Assembly: GCF_004102945.1 (NCBI RefSeq)
Contig: NZ_CP019384.1
Coordinates: 810,001 to 842,000, forward strand
Length of the DNA: 32,000 nucleotides
Source of the DNA: Candidatus Velamenicoccus archaeovorus
Lineage (GTDB): Bacteria > Omnitrophota > Gorgyraeia > Velamenicoccales > Velamenicoccaceae
Direction of reading: 5' to 3'
The position numbers and the translations under genes are program-made. Positions within the stretch are counted from its first letter, which is position 1, and the number at the start of each line of letters is the position of its first letter. Below, in pieces: positions 4,513 through 27,744 of the stretch. The notes under the pieces are model-generated. The model had not been told where the DNA came from and made no database searches. It worked only from the letters and a program-made list of their open reading frames with translations.

Positions 4513-6128
4513 TGTGTCCCCTTTCTTGACGCTAACGAACGGCCTTTCCAGAGATCCGGACACCGTTTTTTTTCTTTCAGGGTTTTCGTTTTCTGCTGAT
4601 GGACAAGCTGTTGTTTGAGGTCCCAGAGTTTTTTGCTCAACGACACATGATATCGGTGAGGATTGATGAGACGTCTGACGCCTGGGTCGAGTCTGTCGAT
4701 GTCGTTCTGACGGAGCCGGCGCATCTCTTCAAGGGTCGCTTGGCGGCGGATCCGCCGGCCGTTCTTCAGGATACCGGTCAATAGAGGTTCTATCTTGGAG
4801 ATGTTGCAGGCGCGGATTGTTTCCTGGATCTGTTCTTCTGTCGGGTGGTGCAGCAAAAGGGTATCTTCTTTGCGCGGATTTTCGTCTTGAAGGGCCACGC
4901 AGTCCGCGAAAGCCTTGCCTCTTGCGTCATAGATGCGCCAGACGGATTTGCCTCCGGGATTGATGATTTTTTCCGGCGTTTCCGAAAGCTTGATGGCGGC
5001 CTTCCAGCGCCTGCCGTCTTTGATCGCCGCCAGTTTATAGACGCCGTCGAGGGCCGGGTCTCCATACGATGTGACAAGCCGCGTACCTACTCCGTAGTTC
5101 AGGCGTGCGATGAGACGTTCCGGGTTGACGCCATAGGCACCGGCTTCCTGTCGGATCTGCGCGATGATTTGCCAGACGACCAGCTCATCCAGCTGGTTGG
5201 AAAGGACGATTGTCGTATCCGGAAATCCGGCCTCATCGAGCATCCTGGCGGACCGGATAGCCAGATAAGCCAGGTCTCCCGAATCCAGTCTGACTCCGAC
5301 GGGTTTGTGACCCTTCTTTTTAAGCTCATCGAAGACCTTGATGGCATTTGGTATGCCGCTTTTTAGCGTGTCGATGGTGTCGACCAGCAACAGACAGTCG
5401 TCGGGATAGATGCCTGCGTAAGCGCGAAATGCAGCCAGTTCTCCTCCTCCGCCATCCAGGGCCATAAATGCCTGGACCATGCTGTGGGCGTGGGTTCCTT
5501 TGGGCGGATATCCGAGGAGACAGGACGCCCCGGTGTTCGAGGAAAAATCAGCCCCTCCAATGAGGGCGGCGCGCGTGGCGGCATTGGCCCCTTTTCCTTG
5601 AGCCCTGCGCATGCCGAAGTCTATCATCGTCTGCCGGCATCCGGATTCTTTGATGCGGCAGGCCTTGGTTGCGACCAGTGTCTGGAAATTAATATGGTTT
5701 AAAAGGGATGATTCCAGCATTTGCGCTGCGGCCAGAGGTCCCTTGACGATGACGAGCGGGACGCCTGGATGGATGACTCGGCCTTCGGGGACCGCCGCGA
5801 TCGAGATATCTTCAAAGCCGCTTTTGTTTTTCAACCATGTCAGAAAATCGTCTGCAAAGAGCCGATGTCCCGACTTCCCTTTTTGGGCGCGTAGATATTG
5901 TAATTCTTCTTCGCCAAAGCGGGATTTTTCCATCCATTCCAGGAAGCTTTCGAGGCCCGCATGGATACAGTATCCCGCCCGGTGTTCGCCGTAATCGGGG
6001 TAATGGCGAAAAGAGTAATCGAACTGGGCCGTTTTTTTGTGGAGCCCCGTGCGATAGTAAAGCTGGGCCATGGTGAGTTGGTAAAAATCAGCAAATAAGA
6101 TGCCGTCGGCCACATGTTCTTTCTTCAT
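4509..6128 (-). CDS. pncB: nicotinate phosphoribosyltransferase
   Basis: 539-aa ORF. N-terminal [11 protein letters not shown] and central [14 protein letters not shown] are typical of NAPRTase. It carries a basic C-terminal tail of about 45 aa beyond the usual domain. Its stop overlaps the next start (ATGA). Confidence 0.9.
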
Positions 6129-8809: not shown

Positions 8810-8823
8810 GCTGTTGAGATGGA

Positions 8824-8857
8824 TCTCCCCCGGGGAAGATCTCTTCCCCGGGGGAGA
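8824..8857. repeat. perfect 16-bp inverted repeat (hairpin/cruciform) between the OmpA-like gene and the radical SAM gene
   Basis: tCTCCCCCGGGGAAGA tc TCTTCCCCGGGGGAGa. The arms are exactly complementary. No adjacent T-run on either strand, so it is not a canonical intrinsic terminator. Confidence 0.6.
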
Positions 8858-18296: not shown

Positions 18297-18317
18297 GAAC
18301 CCTCCCTGATTTTGCCT

Positions 18318-18345
18318 ATAGTAAGGTTTTTACCTTCAAAATCAA
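18318..18345 (-). promoter_or_regulatory. candidate sigma70 promoter for the zinc-ribbon gene
   Basis: Minus strand reads TTGATT-16 nt-TACTAT, about 22 nt upstream of the ATG at 18296. Confidence 0.35.
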
Positions 18346-18493
18346 CCCTGCCCGTCTCTTGGACGAACTCGCGAAGAAAATTTTTACCGAGCGGCCGGCT
18401 AGCAAAGCTGGTCAGGCCCTCATGGAAAAAATTTTCGAGTGTTTGAGCAAGAGATAAATGTTTATCCCTTGTTTGAATTTGTTTTCCAATAAA

Positions 18494-20027: not shown

Positions 20028-20274
20028 TTTTCCTCCGGAAGGCCCACATGAGAAGGCCGCAGATGGGGATGGCGAGGCCTTCGTATAAAAGGATTTTGTC
20101 CCAGTGGAGCCTGACGGCGCCGCGAGACCTTTCGTAGAGAGAGCTGGTTTGTTCGGTGATGATGTAATTGTCGCCGCCGATGGCGGTCACTTTGTAGCGG
20201 GGCGTGAACCAGGCGATGAGGATGAGGGCCAAAATTCCAGCGACTAAAACGATAAGCTGTTTTTTATTCATCAT
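20020..20274 (-). CDS. small bitopic membrane protein
   Basis: ATGATG at 20274 (MMNKKQLIVLVAGILALILIAWF...) is preceded by AGAGGAAAA. 84 aa. Confidence 0.5.
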   Translation of the reverse strand: MMNKKQLIVLVAGILALILIAWFTPRYKVTAIGGDNYIITEQTSSLYERSRGAVRLHWDKILLYEGLAIPICGLLMWAFRRKNG

Positions 20275-20290: not shown

Positions 20291-20319
20291 AGTCTATCTA
20301 AAAGAATAAGATGTGTCAA
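20291..20319 (-). promoter_or_regulatory. candidate sigma70 promoter for the membrane-protein/REC-GGDEF operon
   Basis: Minus strand reads TTGACA-17 nt-TAGACT (ttgacacatcttattcttttagatagact), 16 nt upstream of the ATG at 20274. Confidence 0.4.
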
Positions 20320-20330
20320 TCATTCTTTAA

Positions 20331-20402
20331 TCGAGCCGCAGAATGCGGCGAAGATTAGACCCTTCCTTTATGTAGAATGAGGAAGGTCTACCCTTTCTGG
20401 GT
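20331..20402 (+). repeat. 72-nt direct repeat copy 1 (three hairpins), written on the + strand
   Basis: tcga GCCGCA-gaa-TGCGGC gaagat TAGACCcTTCC-14 nt-GGAAGGTCTA CCC-tttct-GGGT. Near-identical to 20537..20607, including an identical first 43 nt. Confidence 0.85.
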
Positions 20403-20403
20403 A

Positions 20404-20481
20404 ACCCCGCAGAGTATCGGAAAAATTTAGTGCCCGGCAGCCCTGGGCGAGAAATTTTTACGATATCTTACGATACGGGGT
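20404..20481 (+). repeat. long imperfect hairpin X1 (homologous to 24122..24234)
   Basis: ACCCCG(caga)GTATCG GAAAAATTT ag tGCCCGG-cagcc-CTGGGC gag AAATTTTTAC ... CGATAC CGGGGT. The arms pair along almost the whole length. Confidence 0.7.
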
Positions 20482-20536
20482 CATCCAGGAAAGAAACCCC
20501 TAAGCCCCGGACTTTAGTCCGGCGGAGAGATTCCAC

Positions 20537-20607
20537 TCGAGCCGCAGAATGCGGCGAAGATTAGACCCTTCCTTTATGTGGAATGCGGGGGTCTACCCTT
20601 TCCGGGT
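20537..20607 (+). repeat. direct repeat copy 2 (71 nt)
   Basis: Same as copy 1, except the distal stem is degraded (TAGACCC...GGGTCTA only) and the small-hairpin loop is tttcc instead of tttct. Confidence 0.85.
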
Positions 20608-20656
20608 TAGACCCTCCGTTTAGAGGAAGACGGAGGTCTACCCTTTCTGGGTTAGA
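20608..20656 (+). repeat. hairpin module with a different, complementary stem
   Basis: TAGACCcTCCGT-ttagaggaag-ACGGAGGTCTA CCC-tttct-GGGT TAGA. It has the same flanks as the other copies but stem TCCGT/ACGGA instead of TTCC/GGAA. Confidence 0.8.
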
Positions 20657-20712
20657 TCTTTCCTTGGCTCAGGTTTTTATGTTTTTGCGAGTATATTTTT
20701 GCGAGATGGAGA

Positions 20713-21858
20713 TCAGGCGGCAGCGAACACCTGTTTGATAAGCATCGTGGCGTAACAACCGCGCGGCAGCGTGAAGGCAAGCGTCAGATCCTCCCTCTCT
20801 TTTTCCGTTTCTCCGCGGCTGAAAGTATAGGTCATGTCTTCCGGAATGGCCTGGATGGTCCTATCGATGCTTTTAAAATAGGCCTGCCTGATTTTTGTCA
20901 GGTTGAAGATGGAGGTTTTCAGTCCTTTTTCTTGCAGGAGCTCATGGTACGTCTCTGCGGTTTTATTGTCTGCCATGAGCATTTTGGAAGATATCGTCGG
21001 GATGACGCCCGTTATTTCGGCTCCTTCTTCAGCAAAAAGATAGTCTCCTGCCAAGCCTGGATATCTGCTGGTGATCTTTGCTGTGCGGCGGATGAGCCGC
21101 CGCAGGACTTCATTCCAAAGGAAGGCCTGAAAGGAGGCAAAATGGAAAGCAAGCTCGCCGGCGGGGATCTTGCGTAAGAGCGCAAGGAAGTCTTTCGGGT
21201 GTTCAGAGAGGTGTGACAGCCATCCCTTTTCCGTGCGGCTGGCGGCTTCTTTGAGGCATAGCGTCCATTCCCCCCAATGTTCGAAGAAGAATGCCTTGCG
21301 CCGGACGTCCTCTTTTTTGTCTTCGGAAACCCTGTGGGTCAGGTAAAATTTCACGGCACCGTTGAAATGTTTTCTGATGATCTTTTCTGCTAGGAAGCCC
21401 TGGGCAGGATCAAAGGGGCCGAACCGCTGGTCGTCAAAATAATTGAAAAAGCCCTTGCGGGGAATTTCCTTGAGCCTCGGCACGGCCTTCTCTTTTTCGT
21501 GCCGGTTTACGTTGCGGACGACGATACGGAACTTGTTTGCCGCGATGAGGTCCGGTCCCATGGGGCGATCGAGATATCCTGCTGTCTCGAGGCGGAATTT
21601 CGGCGTCTTGGTGTGCAGGGACGCAACGGCCCCCTTGACCGTGATGAACTGGGTGGCGCAGGCGTGTTTGTCTTTGCGGCCGCCGTAGGAGATGTCTGCC
21701 AGGGGTTTGCGGAGGCGTGCAGCGATCTCTTGGACGGCATCAAGGGTGTTGCACTGGCGTTTGATGAGGCGTAGCAGCGTGTAGGGGCCGTTTTTTTTCG
21801 GCGCGCCAGCGAGTATTTCTTCGACGACAAAATCTTCCGGCCTAGCCTTGATTTTCAT
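20713..21858 (-). CDS. truD: tRNA pseudouridine(13) synthase
   Basis: 381-aa ORF. N-terminal KARPEDFVVEE and the catalytic-Asp motif YGGRKDKHA (GxKD) are typical of TruD. Confidence 0.9.
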   Translation of the reverse strand: MKIKARPEDFVVEEILAGAPKKNGPYTLLRLIKRQCNTLDAVQEIAARLRKPLADISYGGRKDKHACATQFITVKGAVASLHTKTPKFRLETAGYLDRPMGPDLIAANKFRIVVRNVNRHEKEKAVPRLKEIPRKGFFNYFDDQRFGPFDPAQGFLAEKIIRKHFNGAVKFYLTHRVSEDKKEDVRRKAFFFEHWGEWTLCLKEAASRTEKGWLSHLSEHPKDFLALLRKIPAGELAFHFASFQAFLWNEVLRRLIRRTAKITSRYPGLAGDYLFAEEGAEITGVIPTISSKMLMADNKTAETYHELLQEKGLKTSIFNLTKIRQAYFKSIDRTIQAIPEDMTYTFSRGETEKEREDLTLAFTLPRGCYATMLIKQVFAAA

Positions 21859-23933: not shown

Positions 23934-24086
23934 TTATGCCGCGGGTGCGGCGGCCTTCGCTTTGGAAGCGGTAAAGCATTTTCTGTTGCAATAGAATTTG
24001 CCGTTCCTGTAGTAACGTTTTATTCTTTTTAAGGGTTTATTGCATTTGGCGCAATTGACTTTTTTGGATTCTTTGCTGTCTGCCAC
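23934..24086 (-). CDS. small (50 aa) zinc-ribbon protein, GTG start; absent from the ORF track
   Basis: Minus strand reads TAAGGAGAACAATC-GTG. Translation: (M)ADSKESKKVNCAKCNKPLKRIKRYYRNGKFYCNRKCFTASKAKAAAPAA. It has CxxC...CxxxC and a strong SD. It fills the otherwise empty gap between two PilZ genes. Confidence 0.5.
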   Translation of the reverse strand: MADSKESKKVNCAKCNKPLKRIKRYYRNGKFYCNRKCFTASKAKAAAPAA

Positions 24087-24098
24087 GATTGTTCTCCT

Positions 24099-24121
24099 TA
24101 ACCCTGCCTCCGGCAGGGTTA
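24099..24121 (+). repeat. hairpin related to the ACCC-loop-GGGT modules
   Basis: TAACCCTGC-ctccg-GCAGGGTTA, directly followed by ACCCCG of X2. This is the same junction (GGGT(T)A-ACCCCG) seen at 20399..20409. Confidence 0.6.
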
Positions 24122-24234
24122 ACCCCGAAGCATAACTTGAAAATTTAGTTCTGCCCGTCTGAGCCTGGCCCGGGTTCCGGGCCGAGCGAAGACTGGGTGT
24201 AGAAGAAAATTTTCAAGTTGTCAATGCGAGGGGT
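24122..24234 (+). repeat. long imperfect hairpin X2 (about 50 bp rod)
   Basis: ACCCC gaa GCAT AACTTGAAAATTT ag TTCT GCCCGTCT gagcct GGCCCGG-gtt-CCGGGCC gagcga AGACtGGGT gt AGAA g AAATTTTCAAGTT gtca ATGC ga GGGGT. On the + strand it is followed by ccgTTTgTTTTTaTT. Confidence 0.7.
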
Positions 24235-24266
24235 CCGTTTGTTTTTATTGAGCCACAAAGTTATTC

Positions 24267-24640: not shown

Positions 24641-24669
24641 AGAATATCACATAAGTTTTTTTGTGTCAA
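24641..24669 (-). promoter_or_regulatory. candidate sigma70 promoter for the PilZ gene
   Basis: Minus strand reads TTGACA-17 nt-TATTCT (ttgacacaaaaaaacttatgtgatattct), 23 nt upstream of the ATG at 24617. Confidence 0.45.
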
Positions 24670-24724
24670 ACAGTTTGTGGTCGGGTCTCCGGTCTTTCTT
24701 TGTGTTTTATCCGCCTTCGCGCAG

Positions 24725-25034
24725 CCGCCTTGGACGGGCCAGAGAGCCTCTGGCGGGAAAACCACGGGTGTGAACCTGTGGATGCCCGCCGGCTGTCAGC
24801 CGGCGAGGTCCCGCCGAAAACCGGACGAGATGCCGTTTGACCGCTGGAAGACAGACAGGCACCACGGCTCGCCTCTCGGCAAAGCCGAGGGCTGTAAAGC
24901 CGTGGGGCTCCATTTAGCGTTTTATCCCGTTAGAAAACCCTGCCCATGGGCGGGATGTTTTAAGGCGGAGGCACGGAGAAAAAGCCCTCTGTCAGCTTTT
25001 TCGTTAGAAAGGCTTGCAGTCCTTTTCTAACGGG
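24725..25034 (+). ncRNA. candidate structured RNA / riboswitch-like element (cobalamin-riboswitch-like core blocks); strand and identity unproven
   Basis: No credible ORF, and GC-rich relative to its flanks. Ordered + strand blocks are: hairpin GCCAGAG-agc-CTCTGGC (24738-54), GGGAA (24755-59), CCACGGG-TGTGAA-CCTGTGG (24762-81), CCCGCCGGCTGT (24785-96), CCGCTGG (24841-47), and GTTAGAAAACCCTGCC (24929-44). There are also many nested hairpins. Confidence 0.3.
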
Positions 25035-25035
25035 A

Positions 25036-25063
25036 TTGACAAAGAAAAAGCGAGTGTTATAAT
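25036..25063 (+). promoter_or_regulatory. near-consensus sigma70 promoter with extended -10, 12 nt upstream of the ATG (leaderless-type)
   Basis: TTGACA-16 nt (ending TGT)-TATAAT, then tttcttaattct ATG(25076). There is no SD. Confidence 0.6.
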
Positions 25064-25075
25064 TTTCTTAATTCT

Positions 25076-27602: not shown

Positions 27603-27693
27603 TAGACCCTGCGCTTATTCGGTATTACCTGGCTCAATCGGATGAGCCAGTATGCCACTTTCTGCGGCATGCGCAGGTCTGTCCTTTCTGGAC
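27603..27693 (+). repeat. hairpin module (long-loop variant) + small hairpin
   Basis: TAGACCcTGCGC-56 nt-GCGCAGGTCT GTCC-tttct-GGAC. The 56-nt insert contains CTGGCTCA-atcgga-TGAGCCAG and ATGCCaC-tttct-GcGGCAT. Confidence 0.8.
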
Positions 27694-27744
27694 TAGGCCC
27701 TGCGCTTATTCGGAATTGCGCAGGTCTGCCCCTTCTGGGCTAGA
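27694..27744 (+). repeat. hairpin module (short-loop variant) + small hairpin
   Basis: TAGGCCcTGCGC-ttattcggaatt-GCGCAGGTCT GCCC-cttct-GGGC TAGA. The final CTA (27740-42) is the TAG stop of the SPOR gene. On the + strand the module is followed by TTTTTTT. Confidence 0.8.

Follow-up and report, generated by a model that had tools for sequence, protein, structure and literature searches.

Results

The truD gap

Within the window, by which we mean the whole 32,000-nucleotide stretch of the Candidatus Velamenicoccus archaeovorus genome analysed here, inspection of the sequence places the truD stop codon at position 20713 and the ATG start codon of the next gene at 20274, both on the minus strand, with a gap of 438 nt as first described. 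Because the flanking genes lie on the minus strand, the repeat motif as it was first written appears in the mRNA as its reverse complement; the features below are given on the plus strand unless marked otherwise. The 72-nt direct repeat of the preliminary description (20331-20402 and 20537-20607, with the first 43 nt identical) is present, and its copies remain similar over 92 nt, with 77% identity. The three hairpin-bearing units are present as well, with boundaries now refined to 20356-20402, 20562-20607, and 20608-20652. With a covariance model they score 56-66 bits (E about 1e-14 to 1e-17), and the core sequence GGTCTACCCTTTCYGGGT has three exact occurrences, compared with 0.01 expected by chance.

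The gap can be read as an ordered series of modules. The 72-nt repeat starts with hp1 (20333-20349), GAGCCGCAGAATGCGGC, a 6-bp GC hairpin whose DNA fold is predicted at −7.5 kcal/mol (z −4.1); an exact second copy lies at 20539-20555, making two exact copies with 0 expected. Unit A (20356-20402; 65.2 bits by the covariance model) reads TAGACC-C-TTCCT-loop-AGGAA-GGTCTA-CCC-TTTCT-GGG-T, and DNA folding predicts both of its hairpins, P1 and P2, on both strands. It is followed by a long imperfect hairpin, the LH module (20403-20482), with the outline AACCCCG...CGGGGTC, arms AAAAATTT and AAATTTTT, a GC-rich apex, and a predicted DNA fold of −19.7 kcal/mol (z −5.1); inspection by eye gave no consistent −35/−10 promoter pair inside it. 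A composite tail (20483-20536) then consists of CATCCAGGAAAGAAACC, the hairpin CCGGAC-TTTA-GTCCGG (20507-20522), and GGAGAGATTC. Beyond the second hp1 come Unit B (20562-20607; 56.2 bits), Unit C (20608-20652; 66.3 bits), with the inner stem TCCGT/ACGGA, and the truncated start of a fourth unit (20653-20665), TAGATCTTTCCTT, which supplies the TAGA that usually flanks arrays on the right. The small gene downstream has a sigma-70-type promoter (20291-20319, minus strand; TTGACA-17-TAGACT) that lies outside the repeat and, in the sense of this gene, marks the insertion's right edge. Both strands of the gap fold far better than shuffled sequences, and equally well (z −6.2 and −6.9).

The same modules recur at unrelated sites in related DNA, where loci are numbered with the prefix L. 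The hp1, unit, and LH composite is found at L011, L133, L134, L152, and L162; the LH is nearly identical in L011, L133, and L152 and shortened in L134 and L162, and the order and end sequences of the composite tail are kept in L011, L134, L152, and L162. Identical copies of the Unit C type stand within the tandem arrays of L003 and L152.

Architecture and covariation of the unit

Across the family the unit is 45-47 nt long, has the layout TAGACC-C-stem-loop-stem'-GGTCTA-CCC-TTTCT-GGG-T, and ends in TAGRCC/GGYCTA. P1 is a 9-10-bp hairpin with one extrahelical C, and P2, directly after it, is a 4-bp mini-hairpin with a TTTCT loop. The retention of the bulged C, noted before from the window, extends to the family, in which its column is at least 90% conserved. 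In an alignment of 62 distinct units, 97% of the stem cells pair and 77 cells contain double changes, compared with 23±3 in shuffles; with 89 distinct copies the values are 96.4% and 135, compared with 37±4.5. Compensatory double changes are seen in 7 of the 13 pairs in the smaller set and in 10 of the 13 in the larger, controls with slid stems pair at 25-54% only, and RNAalifold independently recovers the same fold. The complementarity that had been claimed for the variable stems of the truD cluster holds for TTCC/GGAA and TCCGT/ACGGA, but in Unit B the inner stem TTCC/GGGG includes two G·T pairs.

It had also been proposed that the conserved parts of neighbouring units could refold into a 9-bp hairpin, giving mutually exclusive or cloverleaf-like pairings. 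Such a hairpin can form, but at the junctions of differing neighbours the covariation favours pairing within the unit by 9 to 2. On this basis the bridging hairpin is rejected, and the mutually exclusive and cloverleaf pairings are unsupported. Mismatches within the stems are symmetric: G·T and A·C are equally rare (10/10, 8/6, and 2/4 in the three parts of the helix), and there is no G·U excess on either strand, also after the units are split by gene orientation. The stems therefore bear no RNA-strand signature. Nor does folding energy serve as a strand indicator, both strands folding equally well.

Other copies in the window

The truD gap is not the sole site in the window; the preliminary description missed further copies. 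Besides the three units of the gap, two more lie at 27603-27740, which makes five in total, all intergenic and in one orientation, and modules without a unit lie at 24100-24235 and 18308-18453. Unit D (27603-27693) reads TAGACC-C-TGCGC...GCGCA-GGTCTG-TCC-TTTCT-GGA-C and has in its loop a further module, X (27627-27670), which is 44 nt long and made of two hairpins, of which the second has a TTTCT loop; the covariance model matches Unit D partially, at 27651-27693. Elsewhere, X lies inside the loops of units at L117, L128, L136, L175, and L176. Unit E (27694-27740; 57.0 bits) reads TAGGCC-C-TGCGC-loop-GCGCA-GGTCTG-CCC-CTTCT-GGG-C, and its last base and TA flank are overlapped by the TAG stop codon (27740-27742) of the upstream SPOR-domain gene.

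At 24100-24235, a variant of hp1 (AACCCTGCC-TCC-GGCAGGGTT, 24100-24120) is joined directly to an LH (24121-24235); in the sense of the gene, this element is directly upstream of the Shine-Dalgarno sequence and GTG of a 50-aa zinc-ribbon-like ORF (23934-24086, minus strand). Its ortholog in L179 is 96.9% identical, compared with 67% at fourfold-degenerate sites, an indication that this module, at least, is under purifying selection. In L120 the element is replaced by a larger mosaic, and in L182 it is absent. The element at 18308-18453 combines a different hairpin, hp2 (GATTTTG...CAAAATC, 18308-18343), with an LH at about 18344-18453 whose ends are approximate, and is again directly upstream, in the gene's sense, of a Shine-Dalgarno sequence (GGGAGGG) and ATG (18296). 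The combination is also present in L056 at 4601-4720; the L179 ortholog is 85.7% identical, and L182 is without the element.

Spread, position, and orientation of the family

Further copies, which the structural reading of the preliminary description called for, are numerous: four GTDB MAGs together with 63 metagenome stretches, 440 kb of related DNA in all, contain 128 units, which have complementary stems and are almost all intergenic. A GTDB scan with a degenerate pattern gave mostly chance matches and 6 true loci; exact look-ups of two window proteins gave no record, and relatives were reached via TruD homologs. Clusters are clearly intergenic in 68 of 77 cases, and the other 9 overlap doubtful ORF calls only. 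A scan of viral contigs gave no unit matches, and literature searches with the motif strings and for repeats of Omnitrophota or Velamenicoccus found nothing relevant. The family, which Candidatus Velamenicoccus archaeovorus shares with related Omnitrophota, is apparently undescribed.

Units occur singly or in head-to-tail arrays of 2-3, one contig has a run of five, and all multi-unit arrays (n = 19) are strictly head-to-tail, with none inverted. The flanks follow the pattern T|unit|TA, with T at −1 in 66 of 68 non-redundant arrays and TA at +1 and +2 in 62-63 of the 68, often as TAGA. Units can also be nested inside the loops of other units (L118, L130, L154, and L177). They co-occur with the other palindromic modules, hp1, hp2, LH, and X, and the arrangement hp1-unit(n)-LH is seen repeatedly, n ranging from 0 to at least 3. 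Many loci have the stereotyped arrangement unit-hp1-TTAAGGAG-N7-ATG, and the elements often abut a Shine-Dalgarno sequence, with a constant spacing of 58-61 nt. Of the 47 cases in which the flanking genes are co-directional, 36 have the unit in the mRNA as its reverse complement and 11 have the opposite orientation; all four loci in the window share one orientation relative to the minus-strand genes, and some clusters lie between divergent or convergent genes. The genes next to units are housekeeping genes. As a separate observation, the ORFs lying between inverted units at L160 and L163 look by sequence like ordinary genes and not like transposases.

Comparison with relatives

Orthologous sites differ in their content of units. 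The gap between truD and the next gene measures 90 nt in L179, 85 nt in L182, and 56 nt in L184, and in L185 contains about 330 nt of unrelated sequence; none of these four gaps holds a unit, and all four relatives keep the downstream promoter along with TATCACAAGAGGA. At another site, L056 and L120 have the empty sequence GGCGGAAT|TAACTCC, which precisely matches the filled form, GGCGGAAT-[unit]-TAACTCC. Copy number also varies at one orthologous site, with one unit in L011 and two in L152. At the 27.6-kb locus, 16% of unit positions differ between the window and L120, a close relative, compared with 10% of fourfold-degenerate sites, and the stems are re-paired.

In one relative, represented by three independent assemblies (L179, L180, and L181), a 45-nt unit lies in frame inside truD itself, adding 15 aa, QKGRISAFHLKEGPA, that are absent from 8 other TruD orthologs; this is the single documented intragenic case. 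Its insertion site mimics a junction between units at 9 of 10 positions (GAC|TGGCCCC compared with GAC|TGGACCC). In the rare variants that start with TGG (L154 and L179), matching changes are found at the internal partner base as well as in the 3′ flank. The TA flanks and the precise empty sites fit a duplication of TA, although TA also forms the first two bases of the unit, which are paired in P1, and the TA flank could reflect the periodicity of the units rather than a target-site duplication.

An enzyme for such movement was sought in several ways. Comparison of Escherichia coli RayT with 2,989 ORF segments from 70 related loci found no RayT-like protein (best E 2.7), a Pfam search found no transposase or recombinase among the 40 window ORFs scanned, and an all-against-all search of the related loci gave no recurrent family of neighbouring genes.

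Discussion

Considered together, these observations suggest that the cluster at truD is probably a local pile-up of a lineage-specific, non-autonomous mobile repeat family whose spread depends on structure and which is passively transcribed with the operons in which it sits. Under this proposal, units would multiply and move at the level of DNA, with new units added beside sequences that resemble a unit's end or a junction (T|TA, often T|TAGA). Addition of this kind would build head-to-tail arrays, place units within the loops of other units, and on rare occasions put a unit into a gene in the single open frame. Copies that cannot fold would presumably not be propagated, or would be repaired from other copies, so that the stems stay complementary while the sequence drifts. 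The units and the hp1, hp2, LH, and X modules would share intergenic “safe sites” extending from a stop codon to the next promoter or Shine-Dalgarno sequence, a location that would cause units to be transcribed passively within operon mRNAs, and once transcribed they may affect the processing or stability of the mRNA secondarily. We infer that the hairpin is a requirement of the propagation machinery, which could be a hairpin-recognising enzyme, for example an HUH/Y1 transposase; propagation could equally be enzyme-free, by microhomology-mediated template switching at stalled forks. In the preliminary description, conserved flanks with covarying stems were taken to argue for selected structure as opposed to a copied repeat. 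The first part of that argument stands, in that pairing is kept by compensatory change, but the opposition is a false one: the family is copied, mobile, and foldable.

It is worth considering whether the units are instead cis-acting RNA modules of the operon mRNA (3′ stabilisers, RNase III or RNase E sites, or spacers for the downstream Shine-Dalgarno sequence), with their spread being secondary. We regard this as a possibility of some weight, if clearly the less favoured one. The 36-to-11 orientation bias between co-directional genes, the shared orientation of the four window loci, and the stereotyped placement ahead of the start codon at a fixed distance from the Shine-Dalgarno sequence could reflect such a role, and the LH/hp1 conservation between the window and L179 far exceeds the neutral level; processing by RNase III and RNase E is known for Correia and ERIC elements (PMC10969869). 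Against it, G·U pairs are not in excess over A·C on either strand, even with the units split by gene orientation, and four relatives that keep the genes and the promoter have the same truD gap without the elements. In addition, 11 of the 47 clusters have the opposite orientation and some stand between divergent or convergent genes, one unit is within coding sequence, and the unit sequences drift at or above the neutral rate.

A more speculative version of DNA-level movement is that the unit is a self-templating or guide-directed mini-element in which the P1 arm picks the insertion site by complementarity or similarity. The 9-of-10 match of the truD site to a junction and the matched TGG variants point toward this reading, which we nonetheless consider doubtful. 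Were it true and an enzyme involved, it would constitute a new, very small, reprogrammable system of hairpin-guided DNA insertion; were it true without an enzyme, hairpin-driven template switching would be spreading a 45-nt module through a genome and into genes.

Double-stranded or cruciform sites that are bound by a host protein (a regulator, or a nucleoid-associated or gyrase-like protein) and serve chromosome organisation or regulation would account for the equal treatment of both strands, for the invariant and asymmetric combination of an extrahelical C with a TTTCT-loop mini-hairpin, which resembles a recognition determinant, and for hp1, a 21-bp perfect palindrome of the type bound by dimeric proteins. 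We think this improbable: unlike sequence-specific sites in duplex DNA, the stems vary freely as long as they pair, the presence and copy number of the elements differ among close relatives, and no candidate protein was found. Slightly less probable still are the sequence-specific, U-less terminators or insulators between transcription units that were among the roles first proposed. The truD cluster does fall precisely in the interval that separates the truD stop from the next gene's conserved promoter, and on the plus strand TAGATTTTTTT follows Unit E; however, units in general are not followed by a T/U tract (their 3′ flanks are TA(G/A)(A/C)), many sit inside gene pairs coupled through a Shine-Dalgarno sequence, in which termination would abolish downstream expression, relatives have no units at the same site, and the gap contains 3 terminator-like matches compared with 1.4 expected. 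The least probable reading, a single structured ncRNA gene with the hairpins as its domains, could draw on the unusual length of the gap, on the better-than-shuffled folding of both strands, and on the composite of about 200 nt (hp1, unit, LH, and tail) that keeps its module order in other genomes, but Rfam 15 gave no match at the gathering threshold in the window and only noise in the gap at E up to 10, the gap is bracketed by neither a promoter nor a terminator, the orthologous gaps of relatives are without the composite, which itself occurs at non-orthologous sites in both orientations, and its modules are shuffled, repeated, and nested. A search for tRNA and tmRNA genes found none. Over 95 kb of related loci, Rfam returned only a tRNA. 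The absence from four relatives, the missing U tract, the lack of an Rfam match, and the lack of G·U enrichment thus lead away from both of these originally proposed roles, a terminator and a locus-specific ncRNA.

It is informative to set the favoured reading, a structure-dependent mobile repeat, beside the known families of small bacterial repeats. Of the roles first proposed, that of REP/BIME-like elements fits best. Such elements, including REPINs, occur in Enterobacteria and Pseudomonas and are moved by RAYT (HUH/Y1) transposases. Like these elements, the units are short, imperfect, GC-containing palindromes in many copies, extragenic within or between operons, forming mosaics with other motifs, and keeping the hairpin rather than the sequence. 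In work on REPs and RAYTs, a GTAG stands at the foot of the REP hairpin, and the reverse strand of most units, GGGTAGACC, has GTAG in this place. Here, however, there are two hairpins with a fixed extrahelical C, the arrays are head-to-tail direct repeats with no inverted doublets (REPINs), and no RAYT gene was found among the 2,989 ORF segments or the 40 window ORFs. Moreover, the T of the “GTAG” is paired and covaries (A-T to G-C; A-U 66, G-C 13), unlike an invariant recognition base.

In the ends of IS200/IS605 elements and in attC sites, the recognised object is a folded single strand with one or more conserved extrahelical bases and a variable stem. The bulged C of the units, and a target that resembles the unit's own arm, are reminiscent of these systems. 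The units differ from attC in lacking RYYYAAC/GTTRRRY core sites, cassettes, and an integrase, in ending with TAGRCC/GGYCTA, and in being contiguous; they differ from IS200/IS605 in that there is no TnpA or TnpB nearby. No strand asymmetry is seen. A CRISPR array was also considered and rejected, as units abut without spacers and the sole Rfam CRISPR-DR match is elsewhere in the window and far below threshold.

Likeness to the pneumococcal BOX (boxA-boxB(n)-boxC) elements, with RUP and SPRITE, lies in the modular make-up, with a middle module of about 45 nt in variable tandem number, in the intergenic location, in strong predicted folding, and in the lack of a transposase of their own; clusters of differing repeats and mutual insertion have been described for that group (PMC10969869). 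The present family probably has no sequence similarity to BOX, and its host phylum, Omnitrophota, is unrelated to the Firmicutes; each tandem module is here a self-contained double hairpin with covarying stems, and the flanking hp1 and LH are themselves independent palindromes. Rickettsia palindromic elements (RPEs) are known to insert in frame in genes (PMC10969869), and the truD case, an in-frame palindromic repeat that adds an extra peptide of 15 aa to a housekeeping protein of a relative, is similar, as is the host, a genome-reduced, host-dependent bacterium. RPEs, however, measure about 100-150 bp and are often intragenic, whereas the units are 45 nt long and overwhelmingly intergenic. 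Correia/NEMIS, ERIC, and other MITEs share small size and a non-autonomous nature, with TA flanks in Correia, and Correia/NEMIS and ERIC elements are adjacent to genes, co-transcribed, processed by RNase III/E, and able to affect promoters (PMC10969869). In contrast to these, the present family grows as a rule in tandem and by nesting, and there are no terminal inverted repeats: the 5′ TAGACC pairs with an internal GGTCTA, the second hairpin comes after it, and nothing at the 5′ end forms an inverted partner for the 3′ terminal 12 nt of the unit (CCCTTTCTGGGT).

The strict structure with its extrahelical base, the head-to-tail and nested growth, the junction-like targets, and the truD insertion together make this family a clean natural system in which to study the spread of hairpin repeats without an evident transposase. 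It also provides a well-defined repeat family and a covariance model for the Omnitrophota, a phylum known almost only from MAGs. Metatranscriptomes exist for the enrichment culture that contains Candidatus Velamenicoccus archaeovorus (PMC12583861, PMC13153191), and they make the choice between an RNA and a DNA function directly testable. On a practical level, most of the larger intergenic gaps examined in this very compact 1.97-Mb predator genome are occupied by the repeats, which are likely to break short-read assemblies. They can also mislead gene callers, since ORFs that run through units yield peptides of the NPERVDPPIHLKEGSK type.

Results

The 438-nt gap between the stop codon of the TruD gene (20713–21858, minus strand; Pfam TruD, E 1.9e-63) and the ATG of a small minus-strand gene at 20274 holds a series of palindromic modules. 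On the plus strand these are, in order, the module hp1 (GAGCCGCAGAATGCGGC), a two-hairpin repeat unit of 45–47 nt (20356–20402), a long hairpin of 80 nt (LH), a tail that includes a small hairpin, a second hp1, two further units in tandem (20562–20607 and 20608–20652), and a truncated unit start. The preliminary description of a hairpin cluster in this gap is correct, and the 72-nt repeat that it reported, with the first 43 nt identical, corresponds to hp1, a linker and one unit. The core GGTCTACCCTTTCYGGGT occurs exactly three times, against an expectation of 0.01. At this locus, a search for tRNA and tmRNA found none, and Rfam gave no family at any threshold. Just 3′ of the truD stop in the gene sense, outside the unit array, lies a 14-nt tandem direct repeat (TATGTTTTTGCGAG/TATATTTTTGCGAG, 20678–20705) that is missing in the related locus L179.

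A relaxed search of the window revealed two more units at 27603–27740, between two other minus-strand genes, with a different stem that is again complementary (TGCGC/GCGCA); a 44-nt insert with two hairpins (X) sits in the loop of one of them. Scanning the window with R1, a covariance model constructed from the repeat family, returns exactly these five units, all intergenic and all on the plus strand. Companion modules are also found in gaps that hold no unit, specifically hp1 with LH at 24100–24235 and another palindromic module, hp2, with LH at 18308–18453, such that, among the larger gaps that separate co-directional genes in the window, four are occupied by the modular system. The hairpin-repeat finding is real, statistically solid, and much broader than was visible at first.

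The fold we tested comprises a hairpin, P1, in which TAGACC/GGTCTA continues into an inner stem of 4–5 bp and the 5′ arm carries one additional C, followed by a mini-hairpin, P2 (ACCC-TTTCT-GGGT). Across 62 distinct simple units, 97% of cells are paired under this fold versus 25–50% with slid partners, and 77 cells show double changes, compared with 23±3 in shuffles. RNAalifold independently gives the same fold, placing the A of GGTCTA in P2 (A-U 54, G-C 4). Likewise, among 89 distinct model-aligned copies, 96.4% of cells are paired and double changes affect 10 of 13 pairs. The outer stem appears as TAGGCC/GGCCTA, TAGGTC/GACCTA, AAGTCC/GGACTA and TGGGCC/GGCCCA, and P2 as ATCC/GGAT, AGCC/GGCT and GCCC/GGGC, among other variants, while the extra-C column is at least 90% conserved. 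The alternative hairpin proposed earlier, spanning two neighboring units, fares poorly: where neighbors differ, the 5′ arm fits its own 3′ arm at 9 of 11 junctions.

Candidatus Velamenicoccus archaeovorus is a predatory ultramicrobacterium of the Omnitrophota (OP3) (PMC13153191, PMC10066038). An exact 20-mer of the core is present in 63 metagenome stretches and in four GTDB MAGs labeled Omnitrophota/Omnitrophica or ‘Planctomycetia’, and it is absent from the viral contigs searched; an R1 scan of the 63 stretches and the four MAGs’ loci (440 kb) yields 128 units. Genes were called with a codon-usage gene caller trained on these loci, whose calls in the window largely match Pfam-supported genes. 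On this basis, the 77 non-redundant clusters are intergenic, the exceptions being nine that overlap ORF calls of doubtful validity. Where the flanking genes are co-directional, 36 clusters are oriented as in the window (reverse complement in the mRNA) and 11 the other way round; divergent gene pairs hold six clusters and convergent pairs two. A very common layout, read in the gene sense, is LH, unit(s), hp1, TTAAGGAG, N7 and ATG. In six cases, including the TAG at 27740–27742, the last base of the unit and its TA flank form the stop codon of the upstream gene.

Several observations bear on movement. The base preceding the array is T in 66 of 68 non-redundant arrays and the following two are TA in 62–63 of them, often as TAGA, which is the unit start. 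These arrays contain one unit (49), two units (16) or three units (3), and one contig (L003) has five consecutive units. An empty site, in which hp1 abuts LH as GGCGGAAT|TAACTCC, is present in L056 and L120; elsewhere it is filled, with the unit exactly between the two halves. Furthermore, an entire unit can be nested at T|TA in the loop of another (L118, L130, L154, L177), and one orthologous site holds one unit in L011 versus two in L152.

The truD gap itself can be compared with syntenic relatives, found through TruD homologs 62–75% identical. It measures 90 nt in L179, 85 nt in L182 and 56 nt in L184, and in L185 it contains ~330 nt of unrelated sequence without units; all four keep the small gene’s promoter (TTGACA-17-TAGACT) and leader. 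Because the relatives’ gaps are without units and the promoter and leader are conserved, the ~345 nt of modules in the window are a lineage-specific insertion between the truD stop and the small-gene promoter. In L185 (4001–5463), truD (P0004, 343 aa) is apparently frameshifted near its 3′ end, with the rest of the C-terminal TruD sequence (…LAFTLPRGSYATMLIKQAFATA) continuing in another frame; it is either a pseudogene or an assembly error.

A unit also lies within truD itself, antisense (R1, 35.7 bits), in three independent assemblies (L179, L180, L181). It is 45 nt long and in frame, extending TruD by QKGRISAFHLKEGPA, an insert missing from the other eight aligned TruD orthologs. When compared codon by codon with three empty sites, the target, GAC|TGGCCCC in plus orientation, is seen to resemble the two-unit junction of that subtype, GAC|TGGACCC. 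In the TGG-starting units at L154 2904–2998 and L179 4232–4276, the internal partner is altered to match (G2-C37) and the 3′ flank is also TGG; this hints at a link between flank, unit start and internal arm, as would occur if the target were chosen in a guide-like way, but n = 2 and seven other variant starts have no such match. Some ORFs read through units in the only open frame, giving recurring peptides such as NPERVDPPIHLKEGSK and NPERVDLRIPHSGGSN (L139 140–2500, L166 655–1491, L141 1246–2781, L160 1529–1900). Most look like start-codon over-extension by the caller; L139, with two tandem units in a Lys-rich N-terminal region, could be a second true in-frame insertion.

In L120, which is closely related and syntenic, 90% of fourfold-degenerate sites match the window and proteins are 84–99% identical. 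At 27.6 kb L120 and the window both have two units, which differ at 16% of aligned positions and by a 44-nt indel, with altered but restored pairing in the stems (TAGGCC/GGTCTG in the window versus TAGGTC/GACCTG). At 24.1 kb L120 has a larger, different mosaic (hp1-LH-hp1-unit-unit/X-LH) with a different LH subtype and compensated changes in hp1 (AACCCTGCC/GGCAGGGTT versus AATTCCGCC/GGCGGAATT). In contrast, the more distant L179 (fourfold sites 67% identical) matches the window at 96.9% over hp1 and LH (24100–24235 versus L179 1671–1831) and at 85.7% over hp2 and LH (18297–18493 versus L179 7070–7252), and L182 is without both pairs at 24.1 and 18.3 kb. The high identity with L179 means either that LH is under strong purifying selection or that the elements have recently been exchanged or converted between lineages. 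Hence, the units are labile. At a given site, LH/hp modules can show strong conservation or pass between lineages, and can then be replaced as a whole; this pattern is more suggestive of copy-and-replace within the family than of slow vertical change. Beside the 24.1-kb modules, at 23934–24086 (minus), is a 50-aa ORF (VADSKESKKVNCAKCNKPLKRIKRYYRNGKFYCNRKCF...) that starts with GTG behind a good Shine-Dalgarno sequence and shows a zinc-ribbon-like CxxC...CxxxC pattern; it is conserved in L120, L179 and L182 (where it is called as a 50-aa gene), and a length-based ORF list would miss it.

Discussion

The best-supported interpretation is that the repeats form a non-autonomous family and that their propagation either requires the ability to fold or restores it. 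When a structure is selected in one RNA strand, G·U is normally far better tolerated than A·C. Here, G·T and A·C mismatches are equally rare in three parts of the helix (10/10, 8/6 and 2/4), splitting the units by orientation of the flanking genes revealed no hidden asymmetry, and plus and minus strands fold equally well, both as RNA and as DNA. This symmetric, nearly pure Watson-Crick pairing therefore points to constraint or copying at the DNA level. The repeats would occupy intergenic safe sites and be passively transcribed. Propagation might involve a hairpin-recognizing enzyme, which could readily use the conserved extrahelical C and the TTTCT loop as recognition features, or enzyme-free, microhomology-mediated template switching in which exactly one period is copied; the latter is consistent with the truD target, which resembles a junction, and with the T|TA(GA) flanks.

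No mobilizing enzyme was found in the window or the related loci. Specifically, a Pfam scan of 40 window ORFs gave no transposase or recombinase, only housekeeping, signaling and envelope families or no match; the 2,989 ORF segments of the related loci include no homolog of E. coli RayT; and no recurrent gene family adjoins the repeats. ORFs between oppositely oriented units were considered as transposases and rejected, as they resemble ordinary genes.

The main rival is that the units act primarily in RNA, affecting how the mRNA is processed, how stable it is or how translation starts. It is kept viable by their biased orientation, by their constant distance from the Shine-Dalgarno sequence and by the fact that LH/hp1 is strongly conserved at one locus. 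The turnover pattern also allows LH/hp1 a real function. As the main account of the units, we consider an RNA-level role unlikely. Hairpin-templated correction of quasi-palindromes could also generate ‘compensatory’ changes without selection, although it is expected to erase the bulge, which is retained.

The units are familiar in kind, being interspersed palindromic repeats, and distinctive in anatomy. They resemble REP/BIME elements as extragenic hairpins in mosaics, but are without inverted REPIN doublets, and the T of their GTAG-like motif is a covarying paired base. As in pneumococcal BOX, the modules are ordered, the middle one (~45 nt) varies in its number of tandem copies, and repeats insert into each other, while in-frame residence inside a housekeeping gene recalls Rickettsia palindromic elements; the modularity and mutual insertion of BOX and the in-frame residence of the Rickettsia elements have been described (PMC10969869). 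Membership in any of these families is not demonstrated, and the units have neither terminal inverted repeats nor attC cores. The literature searched contained no paper with the motif or mention of such repeats in Omnitrophota, and within it the family appears to be undescribed so far.

Other features of the window

The divergent intergenic region at 24651–25075 (425 nt) is GC-rich and has many hairpins, GCCGGCTGTCAGCCGGC and CTCGGCAAAGCCGAG among them. It includes a perfect inverted repeat of 14 nt (ATCCCGTTAGAAAA/TTTTCTAACGGGAT, 24924–24937 and 25023–25036) and a near-consensus promoter (TTGACA ~25036, TATAAT ~25058) for a plus-strand T2SSB-like gene. Rfam gave no family for this region (best E 0.36–0.54), which may be an unrecognized ncRNA or regulatory region. 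GC skew is positive on the plus strand throughout 1–32000 (cumulative +2.76) and nearly all genes are on the minus strand, so the coding strand is C- and A-rich, which is unusual for leading-strand gene bias. Finally, two minus-strand genes are separated by a 91-nt gap that contains a perfect 16-nt palindrome pair (TCTCCCCCGGGGAAGA/TCTTCCCCGGGGGAGA, 8822–8857). This pair could be a terminator-like hairpin and bears no sequence relationship to the units.
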